IMG/VR virus record: IMGVR_UViG_3300050821_003663
Coordinates: 1-64,000 of that record
Reading direction: 5' to 3' (one strand)
Length of the DNA: 64,000 bases
From: a virus
The notes under the pieces are model-generated. The model was not told the origin of the DNA. It saw only the letters and a list, made by a program, of their open reading frames with translations, and did no database searches. The position numbers were made by a program, and so were the translations under genes. How positions within the stretch are numbered: position 1 is the first letter of the stretch; every line of letters starts with the position of its first letter. Below, in pieces: positions 26,030 through 48,900 of this stretch.

Positions 26030-29000
26030 ATGGCCGACGCAGCATTCAGGACATACAACCTCGTCAACCAGTCGAAGGGAATCTCCGCCCGCTACGTCGA
26101 CGATGCCGTCCCCGAATCGGTTTACCTCAACATGGACAACGTGGAGGAGATCGAAGAGAACGCGCTCGCGTCTCGGCTCGGAAGCACGGTCATCAACAAG
26201 GGATCTTTTGGCTTAGCGTTTCCGCTATCAGGATCCGTCTATTCGCTCAACAAACTTGCAGGGTTGAACGGTATCGGATGGAGATACGCCGGTTCGGGAA
26301 CCAACCTATATCGGCGAAACGTGGCGTTCACAGGATCGTACACCGTAATCTCCACTACGATGAGTGGGCAGCCGTGGCAGGGGGTGGTCTATCAGCCAGA
26401 GATCAGCTCTATGCCGTACCTCTTCATCGCCGACCTGGCGGGGATGCTGAAGGATAACGGTTCGTTTACCCCTCCTCAAAACATGGGGATCAAGCAGCCG
26501 CAGTACCCAGTGCTCGCGCAAGCTCAAGCCCCGGACCTGATCGTGCTGGACGACTACGAATCATTGTCCACCGACTACACGTACACCGGCATCTCCGGAG
26601 GGACGGTAGGTCCGAACGTTTTCACTAACACCACATCCAATATCGCCACGCCGGGGATTCAGGAAGTCAACGTCGCAGACCCGAGCCTCATCGCACTGTA
26701 CCAGTACCTCTCCATCGGATCAGAAGCGGTGCTCGTCCTATTTGTAACCGCCACAGGGTTCATCGCGGACTTCCAGTTTCCTCACCCGACTGGATCGGCA
26801 GTAGAAAACCAGCAGCTAAGCTTTGTTGTTCCCCCGAGCACAACCGCGACCGTGAGCAAGTCGTTCGGAGGAACCCCCATATCGGCGTGGCCCACCACGC
26901 TGCAGCTAGAAGACTACATTAGCCTGTTCGTCTTCATCAGCGACCCAACCCAGGTGAAGTCGATCACTTTGAAGTTCGACTGCGGAGACGGAACTTTCGA
27001 GACAGACTACTTCTACCGCGTCATCGCACAAGGCCCGCTGCAGAGCCTTCTGGAGACACAGACAGATCCTACTGTTGCCGCGAGCGATGCGATCATATCC
27101 GAAGCGCTGGATATCTATGGAAGCAATCCCGGAGGGGTAACAGCTCTCAACACCGGACTCAACCAGTGGACTCACATCCTCCTGCAATTGTCGGACTTCG
27201 CCGGCGCGGGACGAGCGGACTTCAACGACCCATCCTTCAACTGGCAGAACGTCAACGGATACCAGGTTGAGATCGTGACTAACGATACTACGGCCGCAAC
27301 CGTTGGCCTGTGCGCCCTCGTCCTCTTTGGGGGAGCTGGTCCGGACAGCTTTGCCGGCGTTGCCTACGACTACCTCTTCACCTTCTACAACGTTGTGGAC
27401 GGCTCGGAATCGAATCCGTGCATGGTGATGACGAACATCAACCCCCCGCTCAATACGAACTGGGTGGTTCCGCGAAGGCAGCCGGTACTCTTGACGCTGA
27501 ATCACCCGATACTAGATCCACAGACCACACACCTACGTGTCTATCGTCGTGGCGGAACGCTGGGCGATAACTACCGTCGCGTCGACCAGATCGTCCCCAC
27601 GGGAACGCAGACACTCTACACGGACCTTTCGTCGGACGTTGATATCGAAGTGGCCGATACCGTGTCGTTCGTGAATGACGTGCCAGTCACCAGTACCCTG
27701 CCAGTGCCCGTAAACACGACTTTGAATGTTGCGCTCACCGCGACCAACCAAGTGCAAACGATTACCCCGGCGAGCATGGCAAATATCTCGGTAGGCCAGC
27801 AGGTGACCATAGGCAACATTGCGCCGGTAGATCTCTTGGACACGTCGGAGATCGTTATTGTGCTCACCAAGACAGGATCGAACTTCACCGCGTTCGTGCA
27901 GAACACGCACGAAGTCGGAGAACTAATCAGCGCAACCGCGCAATACTACCTACCCGTCAACATCATGGCGCAGGCTTACGACCAGATGTGGTTTGCCGGA
28001 GACAAAAATAACCCTGCGTACCTGTACTACAGCGCGAAGGGAGCGCCTCAGAACGTAGGGTCCGATAACTACGTGGCGGTGACTACCCCAGACGACCCGA
28101 TCACCGCAATCGTGCAGATCAAGGGAAACCTGTACGTGTCGACGCGAAAGTTCTGGTGGTCGATTGCACCAGGTACGAATGCAGGGCAGCCGCCCACGGT
28201 ATATCCAACGGCCGCAAAGCATGGATGTGTGGCGCCGAACGGCTACGTACTAACCGAGGAGGGCGTCTACTACCAAGCCATCGACGGCATCCGCTTCTTC
28301 GGAGGAGGAGCATCGGTCTACTTGACCCAAGATCAGGAATTCTTGTTTCAAGACGTGGGGAACACGCCGATCATCGAAGCCAATCCAAACAGCCTCAACC
28401 TGACTGTCGGCGCCTACTGGAACAACATGATCTTCTTCTCCTACGTCGGCACTGACGGGAAGAGGCATCGCCTCATCTTCCACACGGTCTATAAGCGCTG
28501 GCGAAACGATGACGCGGATGCGCAGTCGATCTTCCTCGAAGCTGACACCAACGTGCTCGTCTATGGGACAAGCGATGGCCTCGTGAAGATCGACCGGGTA
28601 GGAACGTGGGACGAGAAGAACGTAGCGGGCACGATCACGCCGACGGCAATTCCAATCAACCTGCAGTGGTCGTACAAAGATCAAGGGATGCCGGCGGAGA
28701 CGAAGATCTATCAGGAGTTCACGCTGGACTGTAACACCAACGGTCAGGACGTGACGCCGGTGCTGATGTTCAACGACGGAGAATTCTTTGAGACTCTGGA
28801 CGTAATCAACACCACAGAGCGCACGCGGTTCAACTTGCCGCTAAATAACGGTCAGGGATTCGTGGCGTACAAAGTATCGCTTGTGTTGACCGGCAATGCG
28901 CTGCAGAGAATCTTCCTCTATCAAGCCTGCATTCGCGCACTACAGCTAGCGAAGACGCGAAAGAGCCTGGACACGTACTACCTCCGCTTCTCCGACGACG

Positions 29001-29293
29001 GCTCGAAGATCTGCAAGAACCTCTTTGTGGAGTACAGCGCGAACGAGGAGATATTCTGCATGATCCAGTACGACGATCCCGCGTACGCACCGTTCACCTT
29101 CACACTGCCAGCGAGCGTAGGAGTCCGCAACCCGATGCGCGTACGGCTGCCGGCCGTAAACTTCCGTTGGCTGCGATTGACGATGATATCGAGCGACGAC
29201 TTCCAGATCTGGAACGAGAGCCGGTTCGAGGTGAAGCCCATCTGTAGCGGCAAGGGATACCAATTCTTCGGTTTGCTCAACGTAGAAACCTAG
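26030..29293 (+). CDS. Tail nozzle/stabilisation protein (P22 gp10/T7 gp12-like)
   Basis: 1087-aa beta-rich protein; LRVYRRGG, LYYSAKG, HGCVAP motifs. Confidence 0.7.
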   Translation: MADAAFRTYNLVNQSKGISARYVDDAVPESVYLNMDNVEEIEENALASRLGSTVINKGSFGLAFPLSGSVYSLNKLAGLNGIGWRYAGSGTNLYRRNVAFTGSYTVISTTMSGQPWQGVVYQPEISSMPYLFIADLAGMLKDNGSFTPPQNMGIKQPQYPVLAQAQAPDLIVLDDYESLSTDYTYTGISGGTVGPNVFTNTTSNIATPGIQEVNVADPSLIALYQYLSIGSEAVLVLFVTATGFIADFQFPHPTGSAVENQQLSFVVPPSTTATVSKSFGGTPISAWPTTLQLEDYISLFVFISDPTQVKSITLKFDCGDGTFETDYFYRVIAQGPLQSLLETQTDPTVAASDAIISEALDIYGSNPGGVTALNTGLNQWTHILLQLSDFAGAGRADFNDPSFNWQNVNGYQVEIVTNDTTAATVGLCALVLFGGAGPDSFAGVAYDYLFTFYNVVDGSESNPCMVMTNINPPLNTNWVVPRRQPVLLTLNHPILDPQTTHLRVYRRGGTLGDNYRRVDQIVPTGTQTLYTDLSSDVDIEVADTVSFVNDVPVTSTLPVPVNTTLNVALTATNQVQTITPASMANISVGQQVTIGNIAPVDLLDTSEIVIVLTKTGSNFTAFVQNTHEVGELISATAQYYLPVNIMAQAYDQMWFAGDKNNPAYLYYSAKGAPQNVGSDNYVAVTTPDDPITAIVQIKGNLYVSTRKFWWSIAPGTNAGQPPTVYPTAAKHGCVAPNGYVLTEEGVYYQAIDGIRFFGGGASVYLTQDQEFLFQDVGNTPIIEANPNSLNLTVGAYWNNMIFFSYVGTDGKRHRLIFHTVYKRWRNDDADAQSIFLEADTNVLVYGTSDGLVKIDRVGTWDEKNVAGTITPTAIPINLQWSYKDQGMPAETKIYQEFTLDCNTNGQDVTPVLMFNDGEFFETLDVINTTERTRFNLPLNNGQGFVAYKVSLVLTGNALQRIFLYQACIRALQLAKTRKSLDTYYLRFSDDGSKICKNLFVEYSANEEIFCMIQYDDPAYAPFTFTLPASVGVRNPMRVRLPAVNFRWLRLTMISSDDFQIWNESRFEVKPICSGKGYQFFGLLNVET

Positions 29294-29328: not shown

Positions 29329-29403
29329 ATGCACACGTTACACAGCTCGTATTCACTGTTGTCCTGCCTCAGCGCAGGCGGCGGGGGGTATTGGCCTATG
29401 TAA
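29329..29403 (+). CDS. Attenuator leader peptide 1 MHTLHSSYSLLSCLSAGGGGYWPM
   Basis: ATG 6 nt after -10; codons 6-15 all Ser/Tyr/Leu/Cys, matching downstream tRNAs. Confidence 0.8.
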   Translation: MHTLHSSYSLLSCLSAGGGGYWPM

Positions 29404-29460: not shown

Positions 29461-29539
29461 GCGGAGCTAGGAGAATGGCAGATCCGGCCGCCTCAAAAGC
29501 GGTGACTTCCTCTGGGTTCGAGTCCCAGGCTCCGCACCA
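29461..29539 (+). tRNA. tRNA-Leu(CAA), short variable loop
   Basis: Cloverleaf, loop CTCAAAA, ACCA end. Confidence 0.9.
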
Positions 29540-29542
29540 GAT

Positions 29543-29619
29543 GTGGCAGTAGCCAAGACGGAAAGGCGCCGGCCTGCAAAGCTGGTCATGCGGGAGTTCG
29601 ATTCTCCCCTGCCACTCCA
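29543..29619 (+). tRNA. tRNA-Cys(GCA)
   Basis: Loop CTGCAAA, TCCA end. Confidence 0.9.
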
Positions 29620-29633
29620 AGATCTTTGACAAT

Positions 29634-29709
29634 GCGCGTGTGGCCAAACGGCAAAGGCTCCGGATTTAGGCTCCGGGATGTGTGGGTTCGAATCCCACCT
29701 CGCGCACCA
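29634..29709 (+). tRNA. tRNA-Leu(TAG), short variable loop
   Basis: Loop TTTAGGC, ACCA end. Confidence 0.9.
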
Positions 29710-29718
29710 TATTTTCAC

Positions 29719-29808
29719 GGAGAGATGCGTGAACGGTAAAACGGCCGGTTTGCTAAACCGGCGGTCCTAGTGATAGGCCGCGTGGGGTCAGCACCCACTC
29801 TCTCCTCC
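29719..29808 (+). tRNA. tRNA-Ser(GCT)
   Basis: Loop TTGCTAA, long variable arm, atypical T-loop GTCAGCA, ends TCC. Confidence 0.8.
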
Positions 29809-29899
29809 GGAGGGCGCTGCTAGGCTGGTCTGGCAACTGGTCCTGAAAACCAGAGTGTACCCGCAAGGGGCAGGGGTTCGACTCCTCCGCTCTCCTCCA
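29809..29899 (+). tRNA. tRNA-Ser(TGA)
   Basis: Loop CCTGAAA (C33), long variable arm, TCCA end. Confidence 0.85.
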
Positions 29900-29904
29900 A
29901 GATT

Positions 29905-29993
29905 GCCGGTGATGTCCCGTGGGAAGTGGACGCCTGTCCGTAAAACAGAAGCGCCAAAGCGCATTGAGAGTTCGAACCTCTCCACCGGCACCA
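29905..29993 (+). tRNA. tRNA-Tyr(GTA)
   Basis: Loop CCGTAAA (C33), variable arm, ACCA end. Confidence 0.85.
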
Positions 29994-30037
29994 GAAATAA
30001 AGCTTGACCATGTAGGCTAATTGTGAAACCTTGTGAT

Positions 30038-30112
30038 GGCGGGGTAGAGCAGTGGCAGCTCGGGTGGCTCATAACCACCAGGTCGGAGGTTCAAGTCCTT
30101 CCCCCGCAACCA
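30038..30112 (+). tRNA. tRNA-Met(CAT), initiator-like
   Basis: Loop CTCATAA; unpaired G1xA72, A11-U24; only two of the three bottom G-C pairs in the anticodon stem. Confidence 0.8.
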
Positions 30113-31219: not shown

Positions 31220-31318
31220 ATGAAGCATACGCTCACAACGCGATTTACCCCAGCCGCCGCGCAACAGCCGCGTCAGGGTAATTGCGCATCGCATGTGGGC
31301 CGGAGCTTCAGTCGATAA
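31220..31318 (+). CDS. Attenuator leader peptide 2 MKHTLTTRFTPAAAQQPRQGNCASHVGRSFSR
   Basis: 18 of codons 3-21 specify amino acids of cluster 2 tRNAs. Confidence 0.8.
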   Translation: MKHTLTTRFTPAAAQQPRQGNCASHVGRSFSR

Positions 31319-31346: not shown

Positions 31347-31376
31347 AAGGCCCACCGAATAACCGGTGGGCCTTTT
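31347..31376 (+). terminator. Attenuator 2 terminator
   Basis: AAGGCCCACCG-N6-CGGTGGGCCTTTT. Confidence 0.8.
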
Positions 31377-31389
31377 CGATGTAAATGAT

Positions 31390-31476
31390 TGGAGCGTGTC
31401 CGGAATGGCATCGGCCTCGGCTGTTAACCGAAGTGCCCGCAAGGGAGTGAAGGTTCGAGTCCTTCCGCTTCAGCCA
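31390..31476 (+). tRNA. tRNA-Asn(GTT) with long variable arm
   Basis: Loop CTGTTAA, GCCA end, extra CCC-GCAA-GGG arm. Confidence 0.8.
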
Positions 31477-31971
31477 AGTAAGTGTTTGTTTTGCGAAGTT
31501 GAGATAGTGAAAGGGAGAAAGTTCTGTTCGCACGGATGCGCGGCTAGATACAACAACAAGGCGTTCCCGAAGAGAAAACCCGAAGGCAAATGCGACGTAT
31601 GTGATGCCCCGGTAAAAAACTGCCTCAAGTATTGCGGTAAAAGCTGTAAGTCTAAGGCAGCTCACCAGCGGATGATGGAGACGATAAAGCAGACGAACGG
31701 TCAAAAAGTAGTTCGCTGGCGGCAACGGACCAAAGTTATAGCGGTAAAGTACAAGGGATCAAAGTGCTGTAGGTGTGGATACGACAGGTGCATAAAGGCC
31801 CTAGACTTCCACCACATTGATCCAGCGAAGAAGGATTTTTCAGTGAGCGGGGTGTCCCGCTCATGGGAGTCAATAAAGGCGGAACTGGATAAGTGCATAC
31901 TGGTTTGCGCAAATTGCCATCGAGAGCTTCACGATGGGATGTGGAACGTAGAAGCCCCGAGCGGGCAGTAG
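31405..31971 (+). CDS. HNH endonuclease with N-terminal Zn fingers (start uncertain, inside tRNA-Asn)
   Basis: CCRCGY...LDFHHIDP...CILVCANCHRELH. Confidence 0.85.
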   Translation: MASASAVNRSARKGVKVRVLPLQPSKCLFCEVEIVKGRKFCSHGCAARYNNKAFPKRKPEGKCDVCDAPVKNCLKYCGKSCKSKAAHQRMMETIKQTNGQKVVRWRQRTKVIAVKYKGSKCCRCGYDRCIKALDFHHIDPAKKDFSVSGVSRSWESIKAELDKCILVCANCHRELHDGMWNVEAPSGQ

Positions 31972-32008
31972 TTGGCAGATGTTTGACAATCGAAACGCAA
32001 GATAATGA

Positions 32009-32083
32009 TCGGGAGTATTTCAACAGGCAGAATCATCGGCTCTGAACCGATAGATGGGGGTTCGACTCCTCTCTCCCGATCCA
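32009..32083 (+). tRNA. tRNA-Gln(CTG)
   Basis: Loop CTCTGAA, U1-A72, TCCA end. Confidence 0.9.
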
Positions 32084-32093
32084 AAATTTTCGA

Positions 32094-32167
32094 TGCGTGA
32101 TCGGCTAACGGTAGGCCGGCGTCCTTTGAAGTCGTCTGTCTAGGTTCGAATCCTAGTCACGCAACCA
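32094..32167 (+). tRNA. tRNA-Gln(TTG)
   Basis: Loop CTTTGAA, U1-A72. Confidence 0.85.
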
Positions 32168-32168
32168 C

Positions 32169-32243
32169 GCGGGGTTCGTATAGTGGCTAGTACGGCGGCC
32201 TGCCAGGTCGCACACGAGAGTTCGAGTCTCTCACCCCGCTCCA
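32169..32243 (+). tRNA. tRNA-Gly(GCC)
   Basis: Loop CTGCCAG, GCG acceptor, TCCA end. Confidence 0.9.
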
Positions 32244-32250
32244 CAAGATT

Positions 32251-32354
32251 CTGTCGTACGCCGAAGATTCACTTTCCAAGGGAGGGCGGAAGCTGACTAG
32301 ATCGGATGCGAGAGGCATCTCGCCCTGACTTCAAAAGGCTCTGACGTACGACGG
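32251..32354 (+). ncRNA. Unassigned structured RNA in tRNA array
   Basis: 10-bp closing stem CTGTCGTACG/CGTACGACGG, inner GGGCG/CGCCC and GATGC/GCATC stems. Confidence 0.55.
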
Positions 32355-32365
32355 ATGCGCAATTC

Positions 32366-32438
32366 GCTGGCATCGTTCAACGGTAGGACGTCGGTTTCGT
32401 ACTCCGAAAATCCGGTTCAAATCCGGTTGCCAGCTCCA
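32366..32438 (+). tRNA. tRNA-Thr(CGT)
   Basis: Loop TTCGTAC, TCCA end. Confidence 0.85.
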
Positions 32439-32468
32439 CATGCGGTACATTCTAGGAAAGGAGGGTCT

Positions 32469-33008
32469 ATGCAGGATGCAACAAAGCAGGTTGTACTTCA
32501 ACTCAATTATTCATTCGAGCCGATGGCATTTTGTAATGTACGTCGTGCTGCGCGTCTTGTCGTAAAGGGCAAGGCTAGAATTATCGAACACGACGGTCGC
32601 GAACTGTCAGCCGGCATCATGTTTCCTGCGGTGATCCGCCTTATGGAGTACCGGCACGTACCTCACAAGATGCAGACGCTATCGCGAAAGAACATTCTGA
32701 TTCGCGACCGCAACCAGTGTCAGTACTGCGGAGAGAGGTTCCAGCCGAGCGAGCTAACCCTTGACCACGTTCACCCGAGATCTAAGGGCGGCTTGAGCAC
32801 CTGGGCGAACCTTGTAGCCTGCTGTGGCCCTTGCAACCGCAAGAAGGGCGACAAGACGGTCGAGGAAGCGGGTCTGATGTTGCTGCATCGTCCACGACCG
32901 ATGACGATCCACACGTCACGGTTCCTGATGCGGTCGATGGGCGTCGACGATCCAAGGTGGAAGAGGTATCTCTACACCGAGTCTGACAAAAAGTACACGC
33001 ACTCATAG
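32469..33008 (+). CDS. HNH endonuclease (McrA-like HNH family)
   Basis: AAAGGAGG RBS; RDRNQCQYCG, TLDHVHPRSKGG, WANLVACCGPCNRKKG. Confidence 0.92.
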   Translation: MQDATKQVVLQLNYSFEPMAFCNVRRAARLVVKGKARIIEHDGRELSAGIMFPAVIRLMEYRHVPHKMQTLSRKNILIRDRNQCQYCGERFQPSELTLDHVHPRSKGGLSTWANLVACCGPCNRKKGDKTVEEAGLMLLHRPRPMTIHTSRFLMRSMGVDDPRWKRYLYTESDKKYTHS

Positions 33009-33073
33009 CTCGAAGCGCGAGCATCCGCATGGTAGGCGGAAGGCGATGGGTTGGATTCCCTCTGAGTGCTCCA
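32999..33073 (+). tRNA. tRNA-Thr(GGT), atypical D/T loops
   Basis: GCACTCA/TGAGTGC acceptor, loop ATGGTAG, TCCA end; overlaps HNH stop. Confidence 0.7.
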
Positions 33074-33078
33074 ACAAT

Positions 33079-33149
33079 GCTGGTAGCCCGAGCGCGGAAC
33101 GCCCCTTGTAAGGCCGTTCTCTCAGGTTCGACTCCTGTTGCCAGCTCCA
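33079..33149 (+). tRNA. tRNA-Thr(TGT), reduced D arm
   Basis: Loop CTTGTAA, normal T loop, TCCA end. Confidence 0.7.
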
Positions 33150-33152
33150 AGT

Positions 33153-33231
33153 GTGACCGTAGCCAAGCCAGGTCTAAGGCGCGTGATTGTGGCTCACGTA
33201 TTCGCGGGTTCAAATCCCGTCGGTCACCCCA
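33153..33231 (+). tRNA. tRNA-His(GTG)
   Basis: Loop TTGTGGC, C73-CCA; T rather than G at -1. Confidence 0.88.
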
Positions 33232-33232
33232 A

Positions 33233-33332
33233 GTGGGGGGATTCGCGGAGGTCGCACGTTCGAATCGTGCCGAAGGCGTTCTAAACACCGCCATCGTAGC
33301 TCAGTGGCAGAGCGCCGCGATTATCCCCCTGC
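33233..33332 (+). ncRNA. Circularly permuted tRNA-like RNA without anticodon
   Basis: T arm precedes D arm, acceptor stem closed by a loop, anticodon stem runs into terminal G/C stem. Confidence 0.75.
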
Positions 33333-33347
33333 AACAATTTCAAATGT

Positions 33348-33421
33348 GGGCCGGTAGCATAACGGGAATGCGTCTCCCTTGCAAGGAGAAAGATGGGGTT
33401 CGACTCCCCCCGTGTCCACCA
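33348..33421 (+). tRNA. tRNA-Ala(TGC)
   Basis: Loop CTTGCAA, G3-U70, ACCA end; imperfect acceptor stem. Confidence 0.8.
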
Positions 33422-33431
33422 ATTTTCAGAA

Positions 33432-33507
33432 GTCCCCGTAGCTCAGACGGTAGAGCGCTGTCCTGAAAAGGCAGGCGTCGTGATCTCGAACATCACCGGG
33501 GGCACCA
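33432..33507 (+). tRNA. tRNA-Phe(GAA)
   Basis: Loop CTGAAAA; T-loop CTCGAAC. Confidence 0.88.
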
Positions 33508-33508
33508 C

Positions 33509-33582
33509 TCGGGTATAGCTGGAAGGTCAAGCCTATGATTTGGGATCATAAGACGTCGGTTCGATTCCGACTACCCGGACCA
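33509..33582 (+). tRNA. tRNA-Pro(TGG)
   Basis: Loop TTTGGGA, G72 A73. Confidence 0.88.
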
Positions 33583-33589
33583 TTTTTAT

Positions 33590-33666
33590 CCACCCGTCGT
33601 CCAATCGGATTAGGGCACGTGGCTACGAACCACGAGACGGAGGTTCGAATCCTTCCGGGTGGACCA
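33590..33666 (+). tRNA. tRNA-Arg(ACG)
   Basis: Loop CTACGAA, ACCA end. Confidence 0.9.
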
Positions 33667-33668
33667 CA

Positions 33669-33697
33669 TTGACAAAACCAGCCTACATGGCTAGGAT
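33669..33697 (+). promoter_or_regulatory. Promoter of Y RNA/Ro60 unit
   Basis: TTGACA-N17-TAGGAT with AGCCTACATG in spacer. Confidence 0.8.
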
Positions 33698-33717
33698 GAT
33701 CTTGCGTTTCGATATTG

Positions 33718-33820
33718 TTCTCCGTTAGTGAAAGTACTCGGTTACTTCATTGCCAATAGCCCCGCAAGGGACTTAATGATTCCCGAAAGGGATAACCGGA
33801 TGCGAATGTTCTACGGGGAA
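33718..33820 (+). ncRNA. Y RNA-like unit 1
   Basis: Closing stem TTCTCCGT/ACGGGGAA; TAGTGAA..CGGTTACTTC..CCG..GTTC core; two GNRA hairpins. Confidence 0.75.
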
Positions 33821-33825
33821 AAGTT

Positions 33826-33940
33826 TGAGACCTGGTGAAAGTTGACGGCTACTTCTTGGTTCGAATCCAAGCCGGAGGCAACTCTGGCTGCCACCAAAAA
33901 ACGGTACGGTGGCTACCCGTTGGCGCAGGTTCCGGTCTCA
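33826..33940 (+). ncRNA. Y RNA-like unit 2 (with T-loop arm)
   Basis: TGAGACC/GGTCTCA stem; TGGTGAA..CGGCTACTTC; TTGG-TTCGAAT-CCAA arm. Confidence 0.75.
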
Positions 33941-33950
33941 GAAAAGATAT

Positions 33951-34013
33951 GAGCCTTAGTGCCGTTACGGATACTTCATGCTAAGAAAACTCCGTAGCAA
34001 TCGTTCTAGGCTC
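33951..34013 (+). ncRNA. Y RNA-like unit 3 (minimal, 63 nt)
   Basis: GAGCCT/AGGCTC stem; TAGTG..CGGATACTTC..CTCCGTAG..GTTC. Confidence 0.7.
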
Positions 34014-34021
34014 TCGATGTT

Positions 34022-34156
34022 GTTCGGGATAGTGAAGTTTACGGATACTTCCCTTTGGCGGACGAGGTCGCAGGTTCGAGCCCTGCCATTCGCTTCGGCG
34101 GATGTAGCTCAGTGGTAGAGCGCGTAAATCTCCGTAGGCGCCTGTTCTTCCCGATC
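34022..34156 (+). ncRNA. yrlA: YrlA-type Y RNA (tRNA mimic)
   Basis: TCGGGA/TCCCGA stem, CGGATACTTC core, T arm then UUCG-closed acceptor then D arm TAGCTCAGTGGTAGAGC; adjacent to Ro60. Confidence 0.85.
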
Positions 34157-34163
34157 TAATACG

Positions 34164-34190
34164 AGAGCCAGACTTCGGTCTGGCTCTTTT
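34164..34190 (+). terminator. Intrinsic terminator between Y RNAs and Ro60
   Basis: AGAGCCAGAC-TTCG-GTCTGGCTCT-TTT. Confidence 0.85.
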
Positions 34191-34214
34191 GCTTTTACCA
34201 AGGAGGGTAAAACG

Positions 34215-35567
34215 ATGCGATCAAACGTTGCAGAAAAGAAGCCATTGCTCTACACCCACGAGGGCGCGGTAGCAGTGTACGCGAGCCCGGAGGACCAGCT
34301 TCGGCGCTCAGTGATGTCCAACATGCTCTTCGAGGATGAATTCTACGAAGACGGCCAGGAGATCTCGAAGCGAATCGAGTCGTCAGTCGCAGAGCTCATC
34401 AAGACTCGCGGCGGAGCGGATACGGTCGCAAACATCGCGTTCGAGGCCCGGACGAAGATGAAGCTGCGTCACGTGCCGTTGCTGTTGCTGGTATCGCTGA
34501 TTCGCGCCAACACGGCCGAGACTCGCGCTATCGTTGCCGGCGCCATCGCACACGTCATACAGCGGCCTGACGAGCTGGGCGAGCTTGTGTCGTTGTTCTG
34601 GAAGCAGAGTGGCGGACGGAAGATGCTGCCGAACCAGATGAAGAAGGGTCTCGCGCTCGCGCTGGACAAGTTCAACGAGTACTCGCTGGCGAAGTACGAC
34701 ATGAGTTCGGCCGCAGTGAAGCTGCGTGACGTGCTCTTCTTGAGCCACGCGAAGCCAGCCGGAGTTGAGAAGGCGGATCTCTACAAGCGCATCGCAGCGA
34801 ACGAGCTGAAGACGCCTGACACCTGGGAGGTTGCTCTCTCGGGCGGAGCGGACAAGAAGGAGACGTTCACTCGTCTTCTGACCGAGGGCAACCTTGGAGC
34901 GCTTGCGCTTCTCCGTAACCTGCGAAACATGACGGAGGCCGGCGTGGAGACGGAAGTCATCCGTGAGGGTCTTGGAAAGATGAAGACCGAGCGGGTACTA
35001 CCTTTCCGGTTCATCACGGCAGCTCGCTACGCGCCATCCTTCGAGCCTCAGCTTGAAGAGGCGATGTTCCGGTGTCTCGCTTCGTTCACGAAGTTTCCCG
35101 GCAAGACGACGCTGTGCATCGACACGTCAGCTTCGATGAGCGCAAAGGTATCCGGCAAGTCGGAGATCAGCCGGCGGGATGCAGCGGCCGCGCTGGCGAT
35201 GATGCTGCGTGAGATCTGCGGTGACTGCGAGGTTATCGCGTTCGGAACGCAAGCGGCTGTTGTTCGGCCACGCCGGGGATTCGCGTTGAACGACGAGATC
35301 GGAAGCGGTCGGTTCGGTCACGGAACCAACATTGGCGAAGCAACGGCGCTGGCAGCAACGAAGGGCTACGACCGCATCATCGTCATCACCGATGAGCAGT
35401 CGGCTACGCCAACGAAGGCTCCGGAGTACGGAACCAAGGGCTACTTCATCAACGTGGCCAGCAACAAGAACGGTATCGGCTATGGCGCCTGGACCCACAT
35501 CGACGGATGGAGCGAAGCAGTCATCGACTACATCGCTCGCTTCGAGGGCCTTGAAGGCGAAGAGTAG
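34215..35567 (+). CDS. rsr: Ro60/TROVE-domain RNA-binding protein
   Basis: THEGAVA, LRHVP, QRPDE, FNEYSLAKY, LRDVLFLSHAKP, ALLRNLRNM, LPFRF; vWA DTSASM, HGTN, ITDEQ, DGWSE. Confidence 0.95.
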   Translation: MRSNVAEKKPLLYTHEGAVAVYASPEDQLRRSVMSNMLFEDEFYEDGQEISKRIESSVAELIKTRGGADTVANIAFEARTKMKLRHVPLLLLVSLIRANTAETRAIVAGAIAHVIQRPDELGELVSLFWKQSGGRKMLPNQMKKGLALALDKFNEYSLAKYDMSSAAVKLRDVLFLSHAKPAGVEKADLYKRIAANELKTPDTWEVALSGGADKKETFTRLLTEGNLGALALLRNLRNMTEAGVETEVIREGLGKMKTERVLPFRFITAARYAPSFEPQLEEAMFRCLASFTKFPGKTTLCIDTSASMSAKVSGKSEISRRDAAAALAMMLREICGDCEVIAFGTQAAVVRPRRGFALNDEIGSGRFGHGTNIGEATALAATKGYDRIIVITDEQSATPTKAPEYGTKGYFINVASNKNGIGYGAWTHIDGWSEAVIDYIARFEGLEGEE

Positions 35568-35568
35568 C

Positions 35569-35603
35569 TTGACACGGTAGTATGCGAGTGCTACCGTGTC
35601 TTT
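35569..35603 (+). promoter_or_regulatory. Overlapping Ro60 terminator hairpin and promoter of tRNA cluster 3
   Basis: GACACGGTAG/CTACCGTGTC hairpin plus TTT; TTGACA-N17-TACCGT with TG extension. Confidence 0.6.
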
Positions 35604-35637
35604 GAAGTCCGATCACTAGGGAGAATCTTTGTAGGCG

Positions 35638-35718
35638 ATGAGACAGACCTTCAAACACGTCGTCATAACCATCACCATTGAAAAGTGGGGGCGGGGAGAT
35701 ATGTGTTTGAGGGTCTGA
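35638..35718 (+). CDS. Attenuator leader peptide 3 MRQTFKHVVITITIEKWGRGDMCLRV
   Basis: 13 of codons 8-22 match cluster 3 tRNAs; 1:2, 2:3, 3:4 pairings visible. Confidence 0.82.
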   Translation: MRQTFKHVVITITIEKWGRGDMCLRV

Positions 35719-35745
35719 TCCATACCATACGTGGTATCACCAGAC

Positions 35746-35768
35746 CCCCTCCAAGTGAGGGGATTTTT
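35746..35768 (+). terminator. Attenuator 3 terminator
   Basis: CCCCTC-CAAGT-GAGGGG-ATTTTT. Confidence 0.8.
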
Positions 35769-35799
35769 ATTGGTCTTTGAAAATTGTAAATATATTTAC

Positions 35800-35874
35800 G
35801 GGAGATTCGTACAGCGGCCAGTACGGCAGATTCCAAACCTGCTTACGAGGGTTCGAGTCCTTCATCTCCCGCCA
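35800..35874 (+). tRNA. tRNA-Trp(CCA)
   Basis: Loop TTCCAAA, GCCA end. Confidence 0.9.
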
Positions 35875-35875
35875 T

Positions 35876-35951
35876 CCCGGTATAGCTCAGTGGTAGAGCG
35901 TCACCCTCATAAGGTGGGGGCCGATTGGTTCGAATCCATCTGCCGGGACCA
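35876..35951 (+). tRNA. tRNA with CAT anticodon (elongator Met or Ile2)
   Basis: Loop CTCATAA, paired 1:72, ACCA end. Confidence 0.85.
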
Positions 35952-35953
35952 GT

Positions 35954-36030
35954 GCGCAGCTAACTCAACTGGCTAGAGTATTCGCCTCTTAAGCGAAAGG
36001 TTCTGGGTTCGATCCCCAGGCTGCGCACCA
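35954..36030 (+). tRNA. tRNA-Lys(CTT)
   Basis: Loop CTCTTAA. Confidence 0.92.
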
Positions 36031-36039
36031 ACAAGTTTC

Positions 36040-36115
36040 GGGAGTGTAACTCAAGAGGAAGAGGACCAGCCTTTTAAGCTGGACGATGAGATTTCGAGTA
36101 TCTCCGCTCCCACCA
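36040..36115 (+). tRNA. tRNA-Lys(TTT)
   Basis: Loop CTTTTAA. Confidence 0.9.
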
Positions 36116-36116
36116 T

Positions 36117-36192
36117 GCACCTGTAGCTCAATTGGATAGAGCGCCGGGCTTCTAACCCGGTGATATGGGTTCGAGTCCCATCGGGCGCTCCA
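36117..36192 (+). tRNA. tRNA-Arg(TCT)
   Basis: Loop CTTCTAA. Confidence 0.9.
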
Positions 36193-36193
36193 C

Positions 36194-36271
36194 GCGGTAA
36201 TCGTCTAGTCTGGCCCAGGACTCCTGCTTTTCACGCAGACAACACGGGTTCGAATCCCGTTTACCGCCCCA
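36194..36271 (+). tRNA. tRNA-Glu(TTC)
   Basis: Loop TTTTCAC. Confidence 0.9.
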
Positions 36272-36276
36272 CATTC

Positions 36277-36350
36277 GCCGTCATCCGCCAAGGGTAAGCG
36301 ACATGATTCTCACTCATGCAATCGGAGCTCGACTCTCCGTGACGGCACCA
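36277..36350 (+). tRNA. tRNA-Glu(CTC)
   Basis: Loop TTCTCAC; T-loop CTCGACT. Confidence 0.85.
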
Positions 36351-36355
36351 CATTC

Positions 36356-36431
36356 GCTCTCCTCGTCCAATCGGATAGGGCACCGGTTTCCTAAACCGTG
36401 AATGGCAGTTCAAATCTGCCGGAGAGCACCA
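36356..36431 (+). tRNA. tRNA-Arg(CCT)
   Basis: Loop TTCCTAA. Confidence 0.9.
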
Positions 36432-36435
36432 TTTT

Positions 36436-36512
36436 GCGCGAGTAGCTCAGTTGGACAGAGCGCTGTCCTCCGAAGGCAGAGGCCGCAGGTTCGACTCCTG
36501 CCTCGCGCACCA
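36436..36512 (+). tRNA. tRNA-Arg(CCG)
   Basis: Loop CTCCGAA. Confidence 0.92.
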
Positions 36513-36517
36513 GTTTT

Positions 36518-36593
36518 GCGGCAGTAGCTTAGTGGTCAGAGTCCCTGATTGTCGATCAGGTTCGCGGGAGTTCGAATCTCCTCTGCCGCGCCA
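36518..36593 (+). tRNA. tRNA-Asp(GTC)
   Basis: Loop TTGTCGA, GCCA end. Confidence 0.9.
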
Positions 36594-36597
36594 CATT

Positions 36598-36678
36598 GCA
36601 AGGTTGGCCGAGTGGTCGATGGCGCCTGTCTTACAAACAGGTTTATCGCCGGGGGTTCGAATCCCTCACCTTGCACCA
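36598..36678 (+). tRNA. tRNA-Val(TAC), atypical body
   Basis: Loop CTTACAA; 3-bp D stem GCC/GGC and 9-nt variable loop. Confidence 0.8.
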
Positions 36679-36682
36679 GTTT

Positions 36683-36759
36683 GGACGTAGAGCTCGGATG
36701 GCATGAGCATTCGCCTGATAAGCGAAAGGCCAGTGGTTCAAGTCCACTTACGTCCACCA
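36683..36759 (+). tRNA. tRNA-Ile(GAT)
   Basis: Loop CTGATAA. Confidence 0.9.
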
Positions 36760-36763
36760 ATTC

Positions 36764-36838
36764 GCGGGGTTAGCTGAGTGGAAAAGCGCTGGCCTTCCAA
36801 GCCGGAGATCGTGAGTTCAATCCTCACACCCCGCTCCA
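36764..36838 (+). tRNA. tRNA-Gly(TCC)
   Basis: Loop CTTCCAA, TCCA end. Confidence 0.9.
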
Positions 36839-36895
36839 CAAAATAATTCAGCCTACACAGGAAACATGCTACTATCGCGAAAAGGTAGCATCGAA

Positions 36896-37675
36896 ATGCC
36901 CCTGAGACACATTAGGAACTTCTTCAAGAGGCCCACAGCGAAGGCATACTGGTGGACGCAGATCGCCAATTTTGGCGATGCGCTCGCACCGCTGCTTCTC
37001 GGCCGGTTCGCCGACCTGGACAACGTCCAATACGCTCCGGTTGGCGAGGCGAACATTGCTTCCGTGGGCTCAATCCTGGAACACATCCCCGCCGGTTGGA
37101 GCGGGTACATCGTCGGCTCAGGCATTCTACGCGAAGAGTCAAAGCTAAAGTTTGACCCCCAGCAAGCCAAGATCCTAGCGCTTCGCGGCCCACTGTCGGC
37201 TCGCGGAATAAAGGGCAGCTTCGCGATAGGAGATCCCGGACTACTCGCCAACGAGCTCGTCGGGATCCAGGAGAAGCAGTGGGACTTGGGAATCGTTCCG
37301 CACTGGCTGGATGACCAGTTAGAAAAAAGGTTCCGCAAGCTGGTTCCAACGAAGTTCACCCTCAAAGTCATCAGCCCGCACAACCACCCCCTCAAGGTCA
37401 TCAGGGAGATAGGCGCTTGCAAGAGAATCGTTACATCATCCCTTCATGGAATGATTGTGGCGGACTCCATCGGCGGCATCCCCCGAAGGGTAGAGGTGTG
37501 CGAAAAGATGAAGAGGGAGGGGGGAACGTTCAAATTCCACGACTACAGCGCTTCGATAAAGACGCCACTTCAGATCGGGAAGATGACCGAGCCGAACTAT
37601 AACCAGGTTGACGACACGAAGAACGAAATCTACGACGCCTACAGAGAGCTCGGCGGGCTATATGGGAAAAATTGA
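36896..37675 (+). CDS. Polysaccharide pyruvyltransferase (ExoV-like)
   Basis: NFGDAL, VGSIL, ALRGPLS, GDPGLL, GIVPH, TSSLHG, FKFHDY. Confidence 0.88.
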   Translation: MPLRHIRNFFKRPTAKAYWWTQIANFGDALAPLLLGRFADLDNVQYAPVGEANIASVGSILEHIPAGWSGYIVGSGILREESKLKFDPQQAKILALRGPLSARGIKGSFAIGDPGLLANELVGIQEKQWDLGIVPHWLDDQLEKRFRKLVPTKFTLKVISPHNHPLKVIREIGACKRIVTSSLHGMIVADSIGGIPRRVEVCEKMKREGGTFKFHDYSASIKTPLQIGKMTEPNYNQVDDTKNEIYDAYRELGGLYGKN

Positions 37676-42904: not shown

Positions 42905-45900
42905 ATGGCAGAAGACGTTCTGGAAAAATTGAGTGCCGCGATTGGCCGCAAGATTACGCCCGAGTCGACGGCGAAGAAGCCGGTCTATGTAGCTGGCGAA
43001 AACGTGAAGGGGCTCAAGGAACCGGGCAACATCGACATCACGAATCGTCCCGTGGTTCCAAATCCAGCCGCCGGCAAGGGTCAGTCAAGCACCGTACTCT
43101 CGATGGGGATCGAGGAAGACGGAAAGCATGTTTTGATTCCGATGGTGAGCGACGGCGCAGACGGCAAGCCGCCTCGCATAATGAATAAGAAAGAAGCCAT
43201 CGACTACTACCACAAAACCAAGAAGCATCTAGGGATTTTCGATAGCGATGCCGCTGCCGACGAATACGGAAGAAACGTTCTACACCCCCAGCAGGCCACC
43301 CTGAAGAACGTGAACGGGAGGACTTCGGCCGCCCCGGATCTGTCCTCAATCATCGGCCGAAGGGTGGAGCCCGAGAAGGTCTCCCCGCTGGCGATGCAGC
43401 GGTTCAAGATGTACAGCCAAGCCCGGACGAACGGATTCGACCCGGACGCGGCGATGAAGACGGCGATGTCGACCGCAGGGACCGTCGAAGGAGCGCCGGG
43501 ACAGTCGATGTACCAGAAGGCCAAGTCAGCCTTCGCCAACGTTCCGCTGGCGCCGGGAGCAACAAGAACGCTCGGCGACGTAGGCAAGGACATCTCGGAA
43601 GTCCTGCATCGCGCCTGGGCGAATCCGATGGCGATGTCAGATTCAGAGTGGGCGAGTCATCAGCAGAACATCGACAAATTCTTCGACGACTACCTCCAGC
43701 AGGCAAAGGCGAAGATCGGAGAGCCGACCACCCCGTTCAAGAAGTTCCAGACAGGAGCGGCTCAGTTTGAAGCTGGGGCCTTCGCTGGGACGGCCAAGAC
43801 GGCGGCAGAGTTCACATCTCCCGGCCAGATCGCATTGTTGGTGGGAACCTTCGGTGAAAGCGCGTTGGCGCGTGTAGCGGCTAAGACTGGAATTGCCGGA
43901 GCTGTCCCCGCAGCGAAGACGATAGCGAAGCTGTTGCAGTTGAATTTCACTGCGTCGATGATCGAAGGCACCGCCACCGGAGTCGAAGACACCTTCCGCA
44001 ACGCCATCAAGGGAGACTGGAAGGCAGCCGGCCAGTCAGCGGCCGAAGGTCTAATCAGCGGCGTGATGGCGAAGTCTGCCATCGACCATGAGACCGCGCA
44101 AATCCGAGTAAGGGCGGATCTGGAGAAAGTGGCGCGAGACAAGTACGGAGCCCCGGCGGGCCATCCGGTTACTGCTGCGATCACCTCCCGGTTCAACCAG
44201 CTCGACCCCTTCCGGCAGGCGGCGGTCATTGACGAAGCCGTGAAGCAGTCGAAGGAGTATCAAGACATCCTCAAGGACGTCGACGACAAGAACGCCGACG
44301 CTAAAGCTGAGACGCGGAAACAGCAGCGAGGGCGACTAAACGATTACTACGGCCGCGCTATGTCGGAAGCATGGGATGAGAACGTTGCTAGAAGGACGCT
44401 GCAGGGCCTCCAGCGTGGCCGCCAAGCGGTCGGTCGGATGGAAGAGGCGTCACGGCAGGCAGACACCAAGCGAGCGCAGGAAGAGCACGTACGCGAGCAG
44501 CAGAGCATCACGCTAAGGCTGATAGAAGAGCATCGCGAGATGGATCGGCAAGCAGCCGCGAAGCAGCGGATCGAGCGCGGGCAGGAAGCAGCCTCCGAAC
44601 GGTCCCAGGTGGGACGGATCTCCGAGGTGCTATCCGACAAGCGGAACGACGTATTCCGTCAGCGCCAGGAATTCGATAGTATCGCGCCGGCCGAGACAGC
44701 GCCTCGCCGGCAGATCGAGGCAGTGGTCACCCCCGAGGGCCAGGTAGCCTACCCTGCGATGTTCTGGGGAGAAGAGAATCATTTTGGAGTTGCCGGCGAT
44801 CTTGGCGGACACGCGGTCTATCGCCAGACGCCACGCGGAACGGAGTGGCTAGGGACCGACGGCAATTTCAGCGAAGCTCCGGAGTCGGTCTACATGGCGG
44901 CGAAGCCGGAAGAGGCTGACACGATGGCGCGGCTTGGAGCGCTCACAGCAGAGGCAACCTACCGGGCAGAAGAAGAGGGCGGAGAACACGTAAAGGACGC
45001 AGATGAGCTATCGGCAATTCTCAGAGATTATTCGGAAGGTGAAATCGACGCGAAAGAAGCTCGAAAGAGGGCGGGAATCGCGGACACAACCAAGCTGCCA
45101 GACGAGTACACGGCCGCTCGGGATGGGAGGCTCAATGGACCCTTTTATGATTCATCAGCACGAGGGTATTATGACGGACTTGCTGAGGAGGCAAGAACCG
45201 CTGGCCTTACTGAAGAAGAAACCAACGAACTCCTCAACGAAGCCGGTATGCTTTCCCGTCAGCAAACCGAAAACAACCTCCACCACGTCTCCCGTCCGGG
45301 CGACTACGTCGTTTCGGGTAAAGGAATAAAGTGGACGCTCGACAGCAAGGGCGTACTCCACTCTGACGAAGGTGGAGCAGTACCCCTGTTGAAGCGCGGG
45401 CTCTACTCGAATGACGCTCTACAGCTAGCGGGGAGCGGCCGCGTAGGCTACGGTACGCAGACGCGGGACGAGCGCAGGGCATCCGACGCTCGCCGCCGGC
45501 AGACCGAAGCTGACATCCGGCAGAATCAGGAGCAGGTCGACCGCGAGATGCGATTGGCAGTGCAGCGCCAGGACATCACACCTGCAGCGGAAACAGAGCC
45601 CCGCGCCGATACCATCGACAAAGACGTCCGCAGGCAGAGGTTTATGACGCGGCCGCCACGGGCGGAAGAGAGCCAGGTCGGAGCCATCGTCCGGATGGTG
45701 CTAACGGCGCCCACCGACGCGAAGAGTGTCATCAAGGCCATTGCGGCAAGGAACGGAGTCAGCGAGCAAGAGGTGATGCGCCTTCAGATCGCGGCTGACC
45801 CAGATCGCCTCAACGCCCCGGAGGCGAAGGTAGCGCGGCTGGAGATCGGCGACACGATCACAGACGACTTCCGCAAGGATCGGCCGTGGAAGGTGGAGCA

Positions 45901-48900
45901 GGGCAAGGATGGCAATCTCTACCTGCGGTCTGGAAACGCCTCACCACTCAAGCTCGACAGACTGAATCCCAGCGACCGCGTCAAAGACATCGTCAACAAA
46001 GGCAAGGTGACGCAGAGCAAGCTCGACTTCACTGAAGCTGAGGTCAGTCAGGCTGCGTTCGACCGGCCACACTACGTCAGCTATCAAGACCGCTTGACGG
46101 ATGAGGTGCGCGAGAGGATTGAAGGCACGATTTCAGATCCAGAAGCGCGTACACCCGCACAGGTCGAACAGCAGGCGGTAGCAGCTATCCGGCGCTCCGA
46201 CGCTGCCGATGCCGTGGCAACCAGAGCGGTGATCGACTCGGTCAATCCGCCGGCAGATGTGACCAGCGTGGAGCAGGCTGAAGGCGCCGTCGACGACGCG
46301 CAAGAGAAGGTGAAGGTCGCGGAGAAGGCGTACTCTCAGGCTGCCGAGGCAGAGTCGAAATCGACACCTGCGGACCCGTTCCCAGACCGTGCTCCGGTAT
46401 CCGTGGGATACGTTGGACCGCATGGCATGATCGTCCAGAACGGTCACGAGATCTCATTCCACTACGAAGTGGTCCCGATAGACTCGCTAGTGGCTTCGCA
46501 CAACTGGAATGGCCCCCTACTTGAGGTGAATCCGGAATTTCCGGAACCGCTACAACCACGGACAATCTCAGAGGCAGAGTCGAAGCTGAATGATCTTCGA
46601 GCGCAGCGCCGTGTCACCAGCGAAAACGGCAAGACGCAGGGGTACGACTTCCGCGAGTACGCCGATAAGACCGTGAATGGTTCGATGGGACCGGCAATCA
46701 TCGACCCGAGAGGGTGGATTGTCGGCGGAAACACGCGAATTTCAATCATGCGCCGTCACCTGGACAATCTCCGGTCGATTGGAGACGTGGAAGAGCGCGA
46801 GGCTGCACTGCTGGGGTTCCGTTCGGCAATGCGTCAGCTCGCCTCAGAAGATGGAGTTGCGGGCTATCCGGACGATGGCAGCTTCAATGCCGTGGTGAGG
46901 GTGTTAGATAAGCCCATCGCGACGAACAGGGAGGCAGCGGAGCTAGGCAGGCTCTTCAATAAGTCCGTCAGCGTCCAAATCAGGAAGTCAGCCAAGGGGA
47001 TCTCCTACGCGAAGTCGCTGGACACGCCGCTCATGGAGGAGATCGGGCGCAGGACTGAAGCCTACGACGGACTGACGCCGGCGATGCAGGCTGATCCAGA
47101 GTTCTTTCGCGACATCGTAAGCGAGAAGTTCAGTGTGACCCCGGAAGAGTACGCGGATTGGTTTGACGATATTCCCGGCCGTGGCCTGGTATTGAACGAT
47201 CAGGGCCGCCAGCAGTTCACCAAGGCGATGATGGGCACCGTCATCAAGGATGCAGCCCTGCTGAACCGCATCGAGGGCAGGACGCCCTACCGGGCTGCAG
47301 AGCGGGCGATTACGTACCTCATCAAGATGCAGGCGCTCACCGACCGAGACATCGTCGGCAAGATCACTGAAGCGCTCAACGCCAGCGCGGAGACGATGAA
47401 TACCGACCCCGGCCTGTCACTATCAAACGACCGCTGGCTGGCAACCTACCATCCAGATCAACAGCAATTCTTGGGGATGGAGACGAGCATCCCGCCGGAG
47501 CCTGACCGGATGGTAGAAGCGCTGTGGCGGGCGCTGACAGCTTCAGATGCGGCCGTACCCCGCGTATTCAACGACCGGCTGAAGAGCTTCATTGGGCAAG
47601 AATCTTCGTTAGCGGGTAATATCTTCGAGGAGCAACAGGAGACGCCGGCAGAGGCTTTCAACCGCGCCTTCAAGAAGGAGCTGAAAGAGGTAGCTTTCAG
47701 TCGCAAGGATAAGCAAGAGGCGATCTCGCAGGACGAATACGATGCGGCTCTTCGCAACCGCGAATTGAGCGATGCAGAGAGGTTCGATGCAGAGAACACA
47801 CCGGAGACAGAAGGAGGTCGCGGACAATCGCCAGAGCAGGCTGAGGGGGCGCAAGCCCCCGGCAGTCTCAGCGCAGGAGACCCATTCGCAACGACATCAT
47901 GGGAGCGTGGCGAGCAGCCGGGAGAGTTGATGTGGGTAGACCACGAGGGGGACTATCCGGTAAGTGCAAGACTTCTGGCGAGCAAGGAGCGGGCTGAGGT
48001 TGCAATCAAAGACGAGCACGGGTTAGTTGGCACCGTGGTCATTGGCCGGGGGGAGTGGCCGAAGGAAGAAGCCGACCGTGTTTCGCTGATGCGAGAGAAG
48101 ATGAAGGGGGCCGGAGACTTCAACGATAAACCCGAGCAGGCCCAAGAGAAGATTGCGGAGCGGATGGCTAAACAGGCAGCCATCGCGTTCAAGCACGGGT
48201 CTTCGGGTGGCAGGATGACCCGGCCGCCGGAGGCGCCAACGAAGGCATCCATTGCAGCCCGCGACATGGCCATCACGAAGGCCGAAAAGGGATACGTCAC
48301 CCCGGACAAGCTGAAGGAGTTCCTAGCCTCACATCCAGCGACGAAGGGCAACGTCAACGAGTTGATGCGCACAGCGAGGATGATGTCGGAGTACGTGTTC
48401 GACGCCGACCCGCCGGTGGGGGTAGATCGCAAGCAGGCGCTCGATTGGGTGTTGCGCGAGCGGTTGGCAGGGATCGAAGCGGGAGAGCTCAAGACGAAGC
48501 GCGGGCAGTACAGCGACCCATTGATCGAAAAGGGTGTTGGCGATGCGATCATGAAGCTGCATAAGGCAGCGGACCCCAGCACCTTCATTCACGAGTTCGC
48601 GCACGTCATCTTCCCGATGCTGAGTGACGAGGATCTCAAGGCTATCGACACCATCGAGGGACCGCGTGGGAAGGGGCGCTGGGACGGTGAACGCAAGAAT
48701 CTAACGAAAGACGTTTACGTTGACCTATCGGAGAAGTTGGCGAGCGGCATGGAGCGCTTCCTGCGAGACGAGAACCCCACCGGGTTTACCCATGAGGTCA
48801 AGGCGGTACTAGCGAAGGTCAAAGAGATGATGCGGAAGGTATACAGCGCCTTCGCAAAAGACCCGCTTTCAGGCTTCAACCCGACCGAAGAGGCTCGCGA

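Follow-up and report, generated by a model that had tools for sequence, protein, structure and literature searches.

A probable leader-peptide attenuator ahead of thirteen tRNA genes in a Ro60-encoding phage

The leader region and its codon match to the tRNA cluster

We analysed the first 64,000 nucleotides (nt), called the window below, of IMG/VR virus record IMGVR_UViG_3300050821_003663, a complete virus of 103,677 bp with direct terminal repeats and 57% G+C. Thirteen transfer RNA (tRNA) genes, designated cluster 3, lie at 35800-36838 on the plus strand (ARAGORN, Rfam), downstream of rsr (34215-35567), a Ro60/Rsr orthologue with TROVE and vWA domains. The short region between them, leader 3, contains a predicted promoter, a short open reading frame (ORF) and an intrinsic terminator, all on the plus strand, and forms unit 3 together with the cluster. 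An original prediction made from the DNA letters had read this region as an attenuator of the tRNA genes. Our results support that interpretation by statistics and structure: the codon match of the leader, the placement of its stop codon, the order of promoter, ORF, terminator and tRNA genes, and two further units of this kind in the same phage.

Cluster 3 encodes tRNAs for Trp, Met/CAT, Lys (two), Arg (three), Glu (two), Asp, Val, Ile and Gly-TCC, with spacings of 1-9 nt between the genes. By eye, the CAT tRNA at 35876 may be either an elongator Met or a lysidine Ile tRNA. Between the leader terminator and tRNA-Trp there are 32 AT-rich nt, in which neither sequence inspection nor a scan found a promoter-like site that fits. 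The tRNAs of cluster 3 would therefore need transcriptional read-through of the terminator.

The predicted sigma70-type promoter (35569-35597) was recognised by its consensus match and is composed of a -35 element TTGACA (35569-74), the TG of an extended -10 (35589-90) and a -10 element TACCGT (35592-97). Its first base is 2 nt past the rsr stop codon, and its position places the predicted transcription start near 35604. Six sites of this type could be aligned genome-wide (29294, 30004, 31181, 33669, 35569 and 56113); all are on the plus strand and at gene ends, and they have in common an invariant TTGAC, the G of the TG, the -11 A and the -7 T. The predicted 5' untranslated region (35604-35637) includes a Shine-Dalgarno (SD)-like GGGAG at 35619-23 and an in-frame TAG at 35632-34, two codons before the ATG. 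An intact ORF at 56158 (about 134 codons) has the same AGGGAGAATCT element, with 11 nt between it and the ATG; this ORF lies behind a similar promoter and has an XRE/HTH-like sequence as judged by eye. About half of the long ORFs of this phage lack an SD-like motif. The leader ORF (35638-35718) has 26 codons followed by TGA; its ATG, 34 nt downstream of the predicted start, is the first one that the transcript would contain.

The coordinates given in the original prediction all matched the sequence, and both of its proposed pairings were also predicted by RNAfold. Segment 1 (35644-35658) pairs with segment 2 (35703-35717) over 15 bp with one G-U pair. RNAfold placed this 1:2 helix within an 85-nt hairpin (35638-35722) with a GAAA apex and a free energy of -39.8 kcal/mol, which spans the whole ORF; compared with dinucleotide shuffles, the fold of the leader region had z = -4.2 to -7. 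When segment 1 was left out, RNAfold paired GGGUCUG (35711-17) of segment 2 with CAGACCC (35741-35747), which is segment 3. The resulting 2:3 helix encloses a small hairpin of 6 bp with a UACG loop (35722-35737). The intrinsic terminator (35746-35771) has a 6-bp stem with five G-C pairs, a 5-nt loop and then A-UUUUU-AUU. Its CCCCTC/GAGGGG stem, likewise predicted, was confirmed by the fold (-9.5 kcal/mol for 35746-62) and was found independently by a terminator scan. The description of the architecture as 'textbook' did not hold, as the 2:3 helix shares just 2 nt (C35746 and C35747) with the terminator stem. A longer 2:3 register, GAGGG/CCCUC, was dropped because it was 5.7 kcal/mol worse. The TGA of leader 3 (35716-18) is the last triplet of segment 2, at its 3' end, and segment 2 would be covered by a ribosome at codons 22-27. 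In units 1 and 2, described below, the stop codon likewise lies at the 3' foot of 1:2.

Two repeats were noted around the leader. A 9-nt direct repeat, GTCTTTGAA, at 35598-35606 and 35773-35781 (+), flanks the entire predicted leader transcript; a repeat of this kind would arise in 231 nt with a probability of about 0.1, so it may be meaningless. Between the -35 and -10 elements there is a perfect 9-bp inverted repeat (35571-35600), whose arms are 10 nt apart and which can be extended to a 13-bp hairpin. In an RNA reading through from rsr it would give a hairpin followed by CUUUG, and it may be the rsr terminator or an operator.

We compared the leader codons with those read by the tRNAs of cluster 3. 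Under strict wobble these tRNAs recognise 17 codons, and 31% of all codons in the long ORFs of the phage are among them. Codons 8-22 of leader 3 read as originally predicted, and codons 14-22 (35677-35703) are nine in a row that are each read by a cluster 3 tRNA, in the order Ile, Glu, Lys, Trp, Gly, Arg, Gly, Asp, Met. The longest runs in the other two frames are 2 and 3. A run of nine had p = 5e-4 against 26-codon windows of phage ORFs, p = 2e-3 when tRNAs were redistributed among the three clusters and 5e-4 when whole amino-acid families were redistributed. With dinucleotide shuffles and the best of three frames, a test that accounts for the purine-rich composition, it had p = 0.007. The two codons directly after the run belong to cluster 1. 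The original prediction had counted 12 of the 13 tRNAs as covered. This claim stood for 11 (p = 0.013 for 11/13 with a cognate codon), as did the absence of GAG; the twelfth, Val-TAC, would be counted solely by extended wobble.

The same layout of promoter, short ORF, terminator and tRNA genes recurs in units 1 and 2, and this recurrence is the strongest argument for the attenuator. Leader 1 (29329-29403) precedes cluster 1 (29461-29993, plus strand), which consists of six tRNAs for Leu, Cys, Ser and Tyr exclusively, and ten codons in a row within this leader are for Ser, Tyr, Leu or Cys. Leader 2 (31220-31318) precedes cluster 2 (31390-33666, plus strand; 12 tRNAs) and has codons for all 12 of them. 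Comparison of each leader with its own cluster was significant in 3/3 cases; none of the six cross-cluster comparisons was significant. Together, 43 of the 79 codons in the three leaders are matched, with a joint p = 1e-5 by tRNA permutation and <3e-6 by family permutation. Because every one of the three ORFs opens with the first ATG downstream of its predicted start, the match does not depend on an after-the-fact choice of ORF. No sequence kinship was found among the three leaders beyond the promoter hexamers, so that they represent three independent solutions rather than copies. Gly and Arg tRNAs are split over clusters 2 and 3, and the Gly and Arg codons correspond to the isoacceptors of the own cluster in 5/5 cases in leader 3 and 5/6 in leader 2 (Fisher p = 0.015). 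This indicates that the match is at the codon level and not merely at the amino-acid level; selection on the peptides would not yield such an isoacceptor-specific pattern.

Predicted switch behaviour and a proposed mechanism

The switch was examined by equilibrium folding, with the 3' edge of the ribosome footprint set at 10, 13 or 16 nt in a scan of ribosome positions. The free, untranslated RNA adopted the form with 1:2 and the terminator. With the A site on codons 2 to 20/21, and the RNA behind the ribosome excluded from pairing, the bottom terminator pair C35746-G35762 had a probability of 0.02-0.12. This rose to 0.95 once the A site had reached codon 22/23 and stayed at that level as far as the stop. 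The boundary of the switch in silico thus coincides with the end of the matched codon run. The stall sites are 68-91 nt from the U-run, and the corresponding distance in trp is similar. Unit 1 has its codon run on segment 1 and switches cleanly at equilibrium; unit 2 keeps a 12-bp terminator in every equilibrium fold.

From these features we consider that 35569-35771 is probably a ribosome-mediated leader-peptide transcription attenuator that gates the cluster of 13 tRNA genes at 35800-36838, a reading to which we give somewhat better than even weight. The phage would then probably make the cluster 3 tRNAs only when the leader codons are read slowly. We observe the sequence features, their statistics and the equilibrium folding, and from these we infer promoter activity, translation of the ORF, transcription-translation coupling and the response of unit 3 to tRNA supply.

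Host RNA polymerase would start near 35604, at the TTGACA/extended -10 promoter, and the first ATG would open the 26-codon ORF, whose RNA is predicted to fold on itself as 1:2. If the leader were not translated, 1:2 would form, the 6-bp terminator would follow and transcription would stop before the tRNA genes. A ribosome that translates as far as the TGA, which closes the ORF at the hairpin's 3' foot, would cover segment 2, so that the terminator would again form and transcription would stop at the same place. A ribosome slowed chiefly on codons 14-22 would keep 1:2 open. The 3' part of segment 2 could then pair with CAGACCC, which would take the two bottom C's from the terminator stem and allow read-through into the tRNA genes. 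Because the phage tRNAs for those codons would relieve the stall, the circuit would constitute a demand-driven feedback loop.

Points against the attenuator and rival explanations

Several observations weigh against an attenuator at this locus. The plain count of matched codons in leader 3 (13-14 of 25-26) is weak, with p = 0.03-0.09; cluster 3 has no strictly cognate tRNA for ATA or for GTC, which occurs three times, and the leader lacks GAG. The nine-codon run is in the loop and upper 3' arm of the hairpin and not on segment 1. There are 14 nt between the SD-like GGGAG and the ATG, which is a long spacing, and the ATG is at the foot of the -39.8 kcal/mol hairpin. As to the switch, the full terminator together with 5 bp of 2:3 is just 1.2 kcal/mol less stable than the full 2:3 helix, and the antiterminator overlaps just two terminator nt. 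These two are those nearest the U-run, and by the principles of intrinsic terminators the terminator should suffer most from loss of pairing there. If base pairs are allowed to span the ribosome, 1:2 and the terminator stay intact for a ribosome on codons 13-18. Such pairing around a ribosome at these codons is sterically unlikely; for the outer part of the stem this is less certain.

Comparison with relatives also counts against the attenuator. No homologue of the leader 3 region (35569-35799) was found by megablast and blastn in 50,697 phage records, and blastn detected no homologous leader in 65 IMG/VR Ro60 loci. None was present in 80 metagenome loci or among 7998 Ro60 relatives, so that conservation of the ORF and the pairings did not show. 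The closest Ro60 in a set of 5.8 billion proteins is 67% identical, and the protein cluster of the phage's own Ro60 has one member. The flanking proteins encoded at 26030-29293 and 36866-37675 have no relatives in IMG/VR, and the relatives of the terminase are on contigs too short to extend to the tRNA region.

The nearest relative with nearly the same tRNA order is G001 (L157), a complete genome of 110 kb with a Ro60 that is 58% identical. Its tRNA region (G001:C1:26500-36500) gave about 40 tRNA calls with relaxed ARAGORN, 31 of them above the Rfam cut-off. These tRNAs follow rsr and three Y RNAs in a single unbroken array that has no leader or terminator, and a 1-nt gap separates the Arg and Trp tRNAs of G001 at the place where the phage studied here has Y RNAs, rsr and leader 3. 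The leaders arose in this lineage as an innovation, or else G001 lost them; in either case the codon content of the leaders follows a tRNA order that exists also without leaders. A negative control, on the other hand, speaks for the attenuator: the same search, applied to the best ORF ahead of each of some 45 tRNA sub-arrays in other Ro60-encoding phages (more than 150 loci), produced no candidate, the lowest p being 0.06. Just 3 of these loci showed a terminator immediately ahead of a tRNA, and the tRNA region of Bacteroides phage crAss001 has no such leaders. In a metagenome contig with a Ro60 that is 60% identical (L083, 2000-2200) we observed a promoter nearly identical in the -10 region (GTGCTACCAT), followed by a hydrophobic ORF of 57 codons and then tRNA-Arg(TCT).

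Four other explanations were weighed against the attenuator. The region may be the ordinary end of the rsr unit, in which the hairpins and terminator close the rsr mRNA, the long hairpin is perhaps an RNase III-type site and the ORF match is due to chance. The leader region starts immediately behind the rsr stop codon, plain terminators directly follow rsr in other Ro60 phages (including L130/L132), and the long, nearly perfect stem is similar to RNase III substrates. However, this explanation leaves unexplained the TTGACA/extended -10 promoter after the rsr stop as well as the in-frame run of nine codons (p = 5e-4 to 7e-3). It would also leave the cluster 3 tRNAs without a promoter of their own, and units 1 and 2, which have no such gene end, show the same cluster-specific match (joint p <1e-5). 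We therefore regard it as unlikely. Little credence is given as well to antitermination of the lambda pR'-tR' type, factor-dependent or timed, in which a constitutive promoter yields a short terminated RNA until a phage protein or a hairpin RNA element makes polymerase resistant to the terminator, and the ORF senses nothing. A promoter, an RNA of 165 nt, a terminator and then genes are the layout of pR'-6S RNA-tR', the 9-bp inverted repeat is located between -35 and -10, where Q-type factors bind, and the weakness of the 2:3 antiterminator would fit as well. This mechanism, however, predicts neither cluster-matched in-frame codons nor isoacceptor-specific Gly and Arg codons, and neither in the hairpin nor in the promoter spacer do the three units have a motif in common.

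A separate small RNA that runs from the promoter to the terminator (about 165 nt) and acts in trans, for example one bound by Ro60, appears improbable to us. It would adjoin rsr, with four Y-RNA-like units upstream of rsr and relatives that have Y RNAs downstream, and it would have a very stable fold (z = -4.2); but the CGGNTACTTC core is missing from the leader region, neither YrlA nor any other Rfam family matched there (E up to 10), and the codon match would be unexplained. The hypothesis to which we assign almost no weight is that the ORF encodes a functional peptide of 26 residues, with the hairpin and terminator unrelated. The frame is intact from the first ATG. Against this, the peptide has no homologue and no membrane-spanning stretch and could not be conserved in relatives that lack the region, and selection on a peptide would not choose isoacceptor-specific codons. 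The in-frame, cluster-specific codon match is explained by none of the four rivals.

Genomic setting, known systems and significance

The phage has 32 tRNA genes, all on the plus strand. ARAGORN with default settings called 28 of them; Ser-TGA, Tyr-GTA and Thr-GGT were added by relaxed ARAGORN and Rfam, and Thr-TGT at 33077-33150 was read as a tRNA by eye. A lone tRNA-Met(CAT) at 30038 is outside the three clusters (30004-30112, plus strand). It is preceded, at about 5 nt, by a promoter like that of unit 3 and lacks both a leader ORF and a terminator. By eye, its first acceptor pair appears to be mismatched (G-A). If it is an initiator tRNA, a sensor based on stalling could not report on it. 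Cluster 2 is interrupted by two HNH endonuclease genes (31366-31971 and 32355-33008, plus strand; PHROG and Pfam matches), both of which would be transcribed under the unit at 31220 if that unit is an attenuator. The terminase and portal of the phage are weakly recognisable only. An ORF of 3708 codons (42905-54031, plus strand) has a single faint helicase-like PHROG match and may encode a giant virion protein or a polymerase.

Four tandem Y-RNA-like units (33700-34190, plus strand) are found just upstream of rsr, between the TTGACA promoter at 33669 and a strong terminator (34163-88). Each has an exact CGGNTACTTC core (33739, 33846, 33968 and 34042), and these are the four occurrences of the core in the window, all within 33739-34051. 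In the last unit, Rfam recognised a YrlA tRNA-like domain with a score below the gathering threshold (34.8 bits, E = 2.7e-5). Two or three Y-RNA-like units are also present upstream or downstream of rsr in four related loci (L002, L080, L077 and L083). A full-length YrlA-like match (33230-33343, plus strand; Rfam 38.5 bits, E = 4.6e-6, model 1-114) is located away from rsr, between tRNA-His and tRNA-Ala in cluster 2. Because the Ro60 gene adjoins, a further Y RNA was first suspected in the leader region downstream of rsr. It was rejected, as CGGNTACTTC is absent from 35569-35799 even with one mismatch and YrlA gave no match there. The Trp, His, Thr, Leu and Phe leader families and the T-box were rejected too, with no Rfam match in 33600-35830 (cmscan, E up to 10).

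Enterobacterial leader-peptide attenuators include the multivalent leaders of ilvGMEDA (Ile/Leu/Val) and thrL (Thr/Ile) as well as trpL, hisL, leuL and pheL. The general principle of leader-peptide attenuation has been described (PMC1183508). Like the attenuators of amino-acid operons, unit 3 has a short promoter-proximal ORF with candidate regulatory codons, 1:2, 2:3 and 3:4 pairings that would alternate, and an intrinsic terminator before the genes. The placement of the stop codon would favour termination when the ribosome does not stall, and more than one amino acid would be sensed. Unlike them, unit 3 is borne by a phage and would regulate tRNAs instead of biosynthetic enzymes. Whereas amino-acid operon leaders repeat one or two codons, unit 3 presents a 'checklist' of nine different codons, once each. 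It also differs in having these codons in the upper hairpin and not on segment 1, and in the short overlap of antiterminator and terminator.

The pheST attenuator, with a leader of Phe codons, controls phenylalanyl-tRNA synthetase and senses one amino acid, and T-box leaders act without translation, by direct binding of uncharged tRNA. The mechanism proposed for unit 3 resembles both in that a component of the translation apparatus would be attenuated by the supply of charged tRNA. It differs from them in its target, which is tRNA genes rather than the synthetase of pheST, and nothing in it matches a T-box. Lambda pR'-qut-tR' late control requires the Q protein together with a DNA site and a sigma-dependent pause. 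Like the layout proposed for unit 3, it combines a constitutive promoter with a short terminated RNA and with genes expressed by read-through, but it has no leader ORF matched to its targets. A full-text literature search, with most subscription journals outside its scope, found no paper on leader-peptide attenuation of tRNA genes, either phage or cellular.

On a wider and more tentative view, which we hold to be possible but doubtful, the three leaders together may be a surveillance circuit for the host tRNA pool that supplies replacement tRNAs on shortage of any codon on the checklist. Such shortages could be triggered by host anticodon nucleases that cut tRNA-Lys, -Arg, -Glu or -Asp, or by host shut-off. 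The circuit would form one island with Ro60 and the four Y RNAs as an RNA-care module. If true, this would be a sensing counter-defence that goes beyond the tuning of codon usage.

The usual view of phage tRNA genes is that they are constitutive cargo, serving to tune codon usage or to make up for tRNAs destroyed in infection. The response of a phage to tRNA-cleaving defences becomes directly testable here with a reporter of about 230 nt, and unit 3 could serve as a compact multi-codon sensor of translation stress. If the attenuator reading of unit 3 is true, the phage gauges how fast each codon is decoded and makes tRNAs as they are needed, and the classical mechanism of amino-acid operons would be extended to the tRNA genes themselves.

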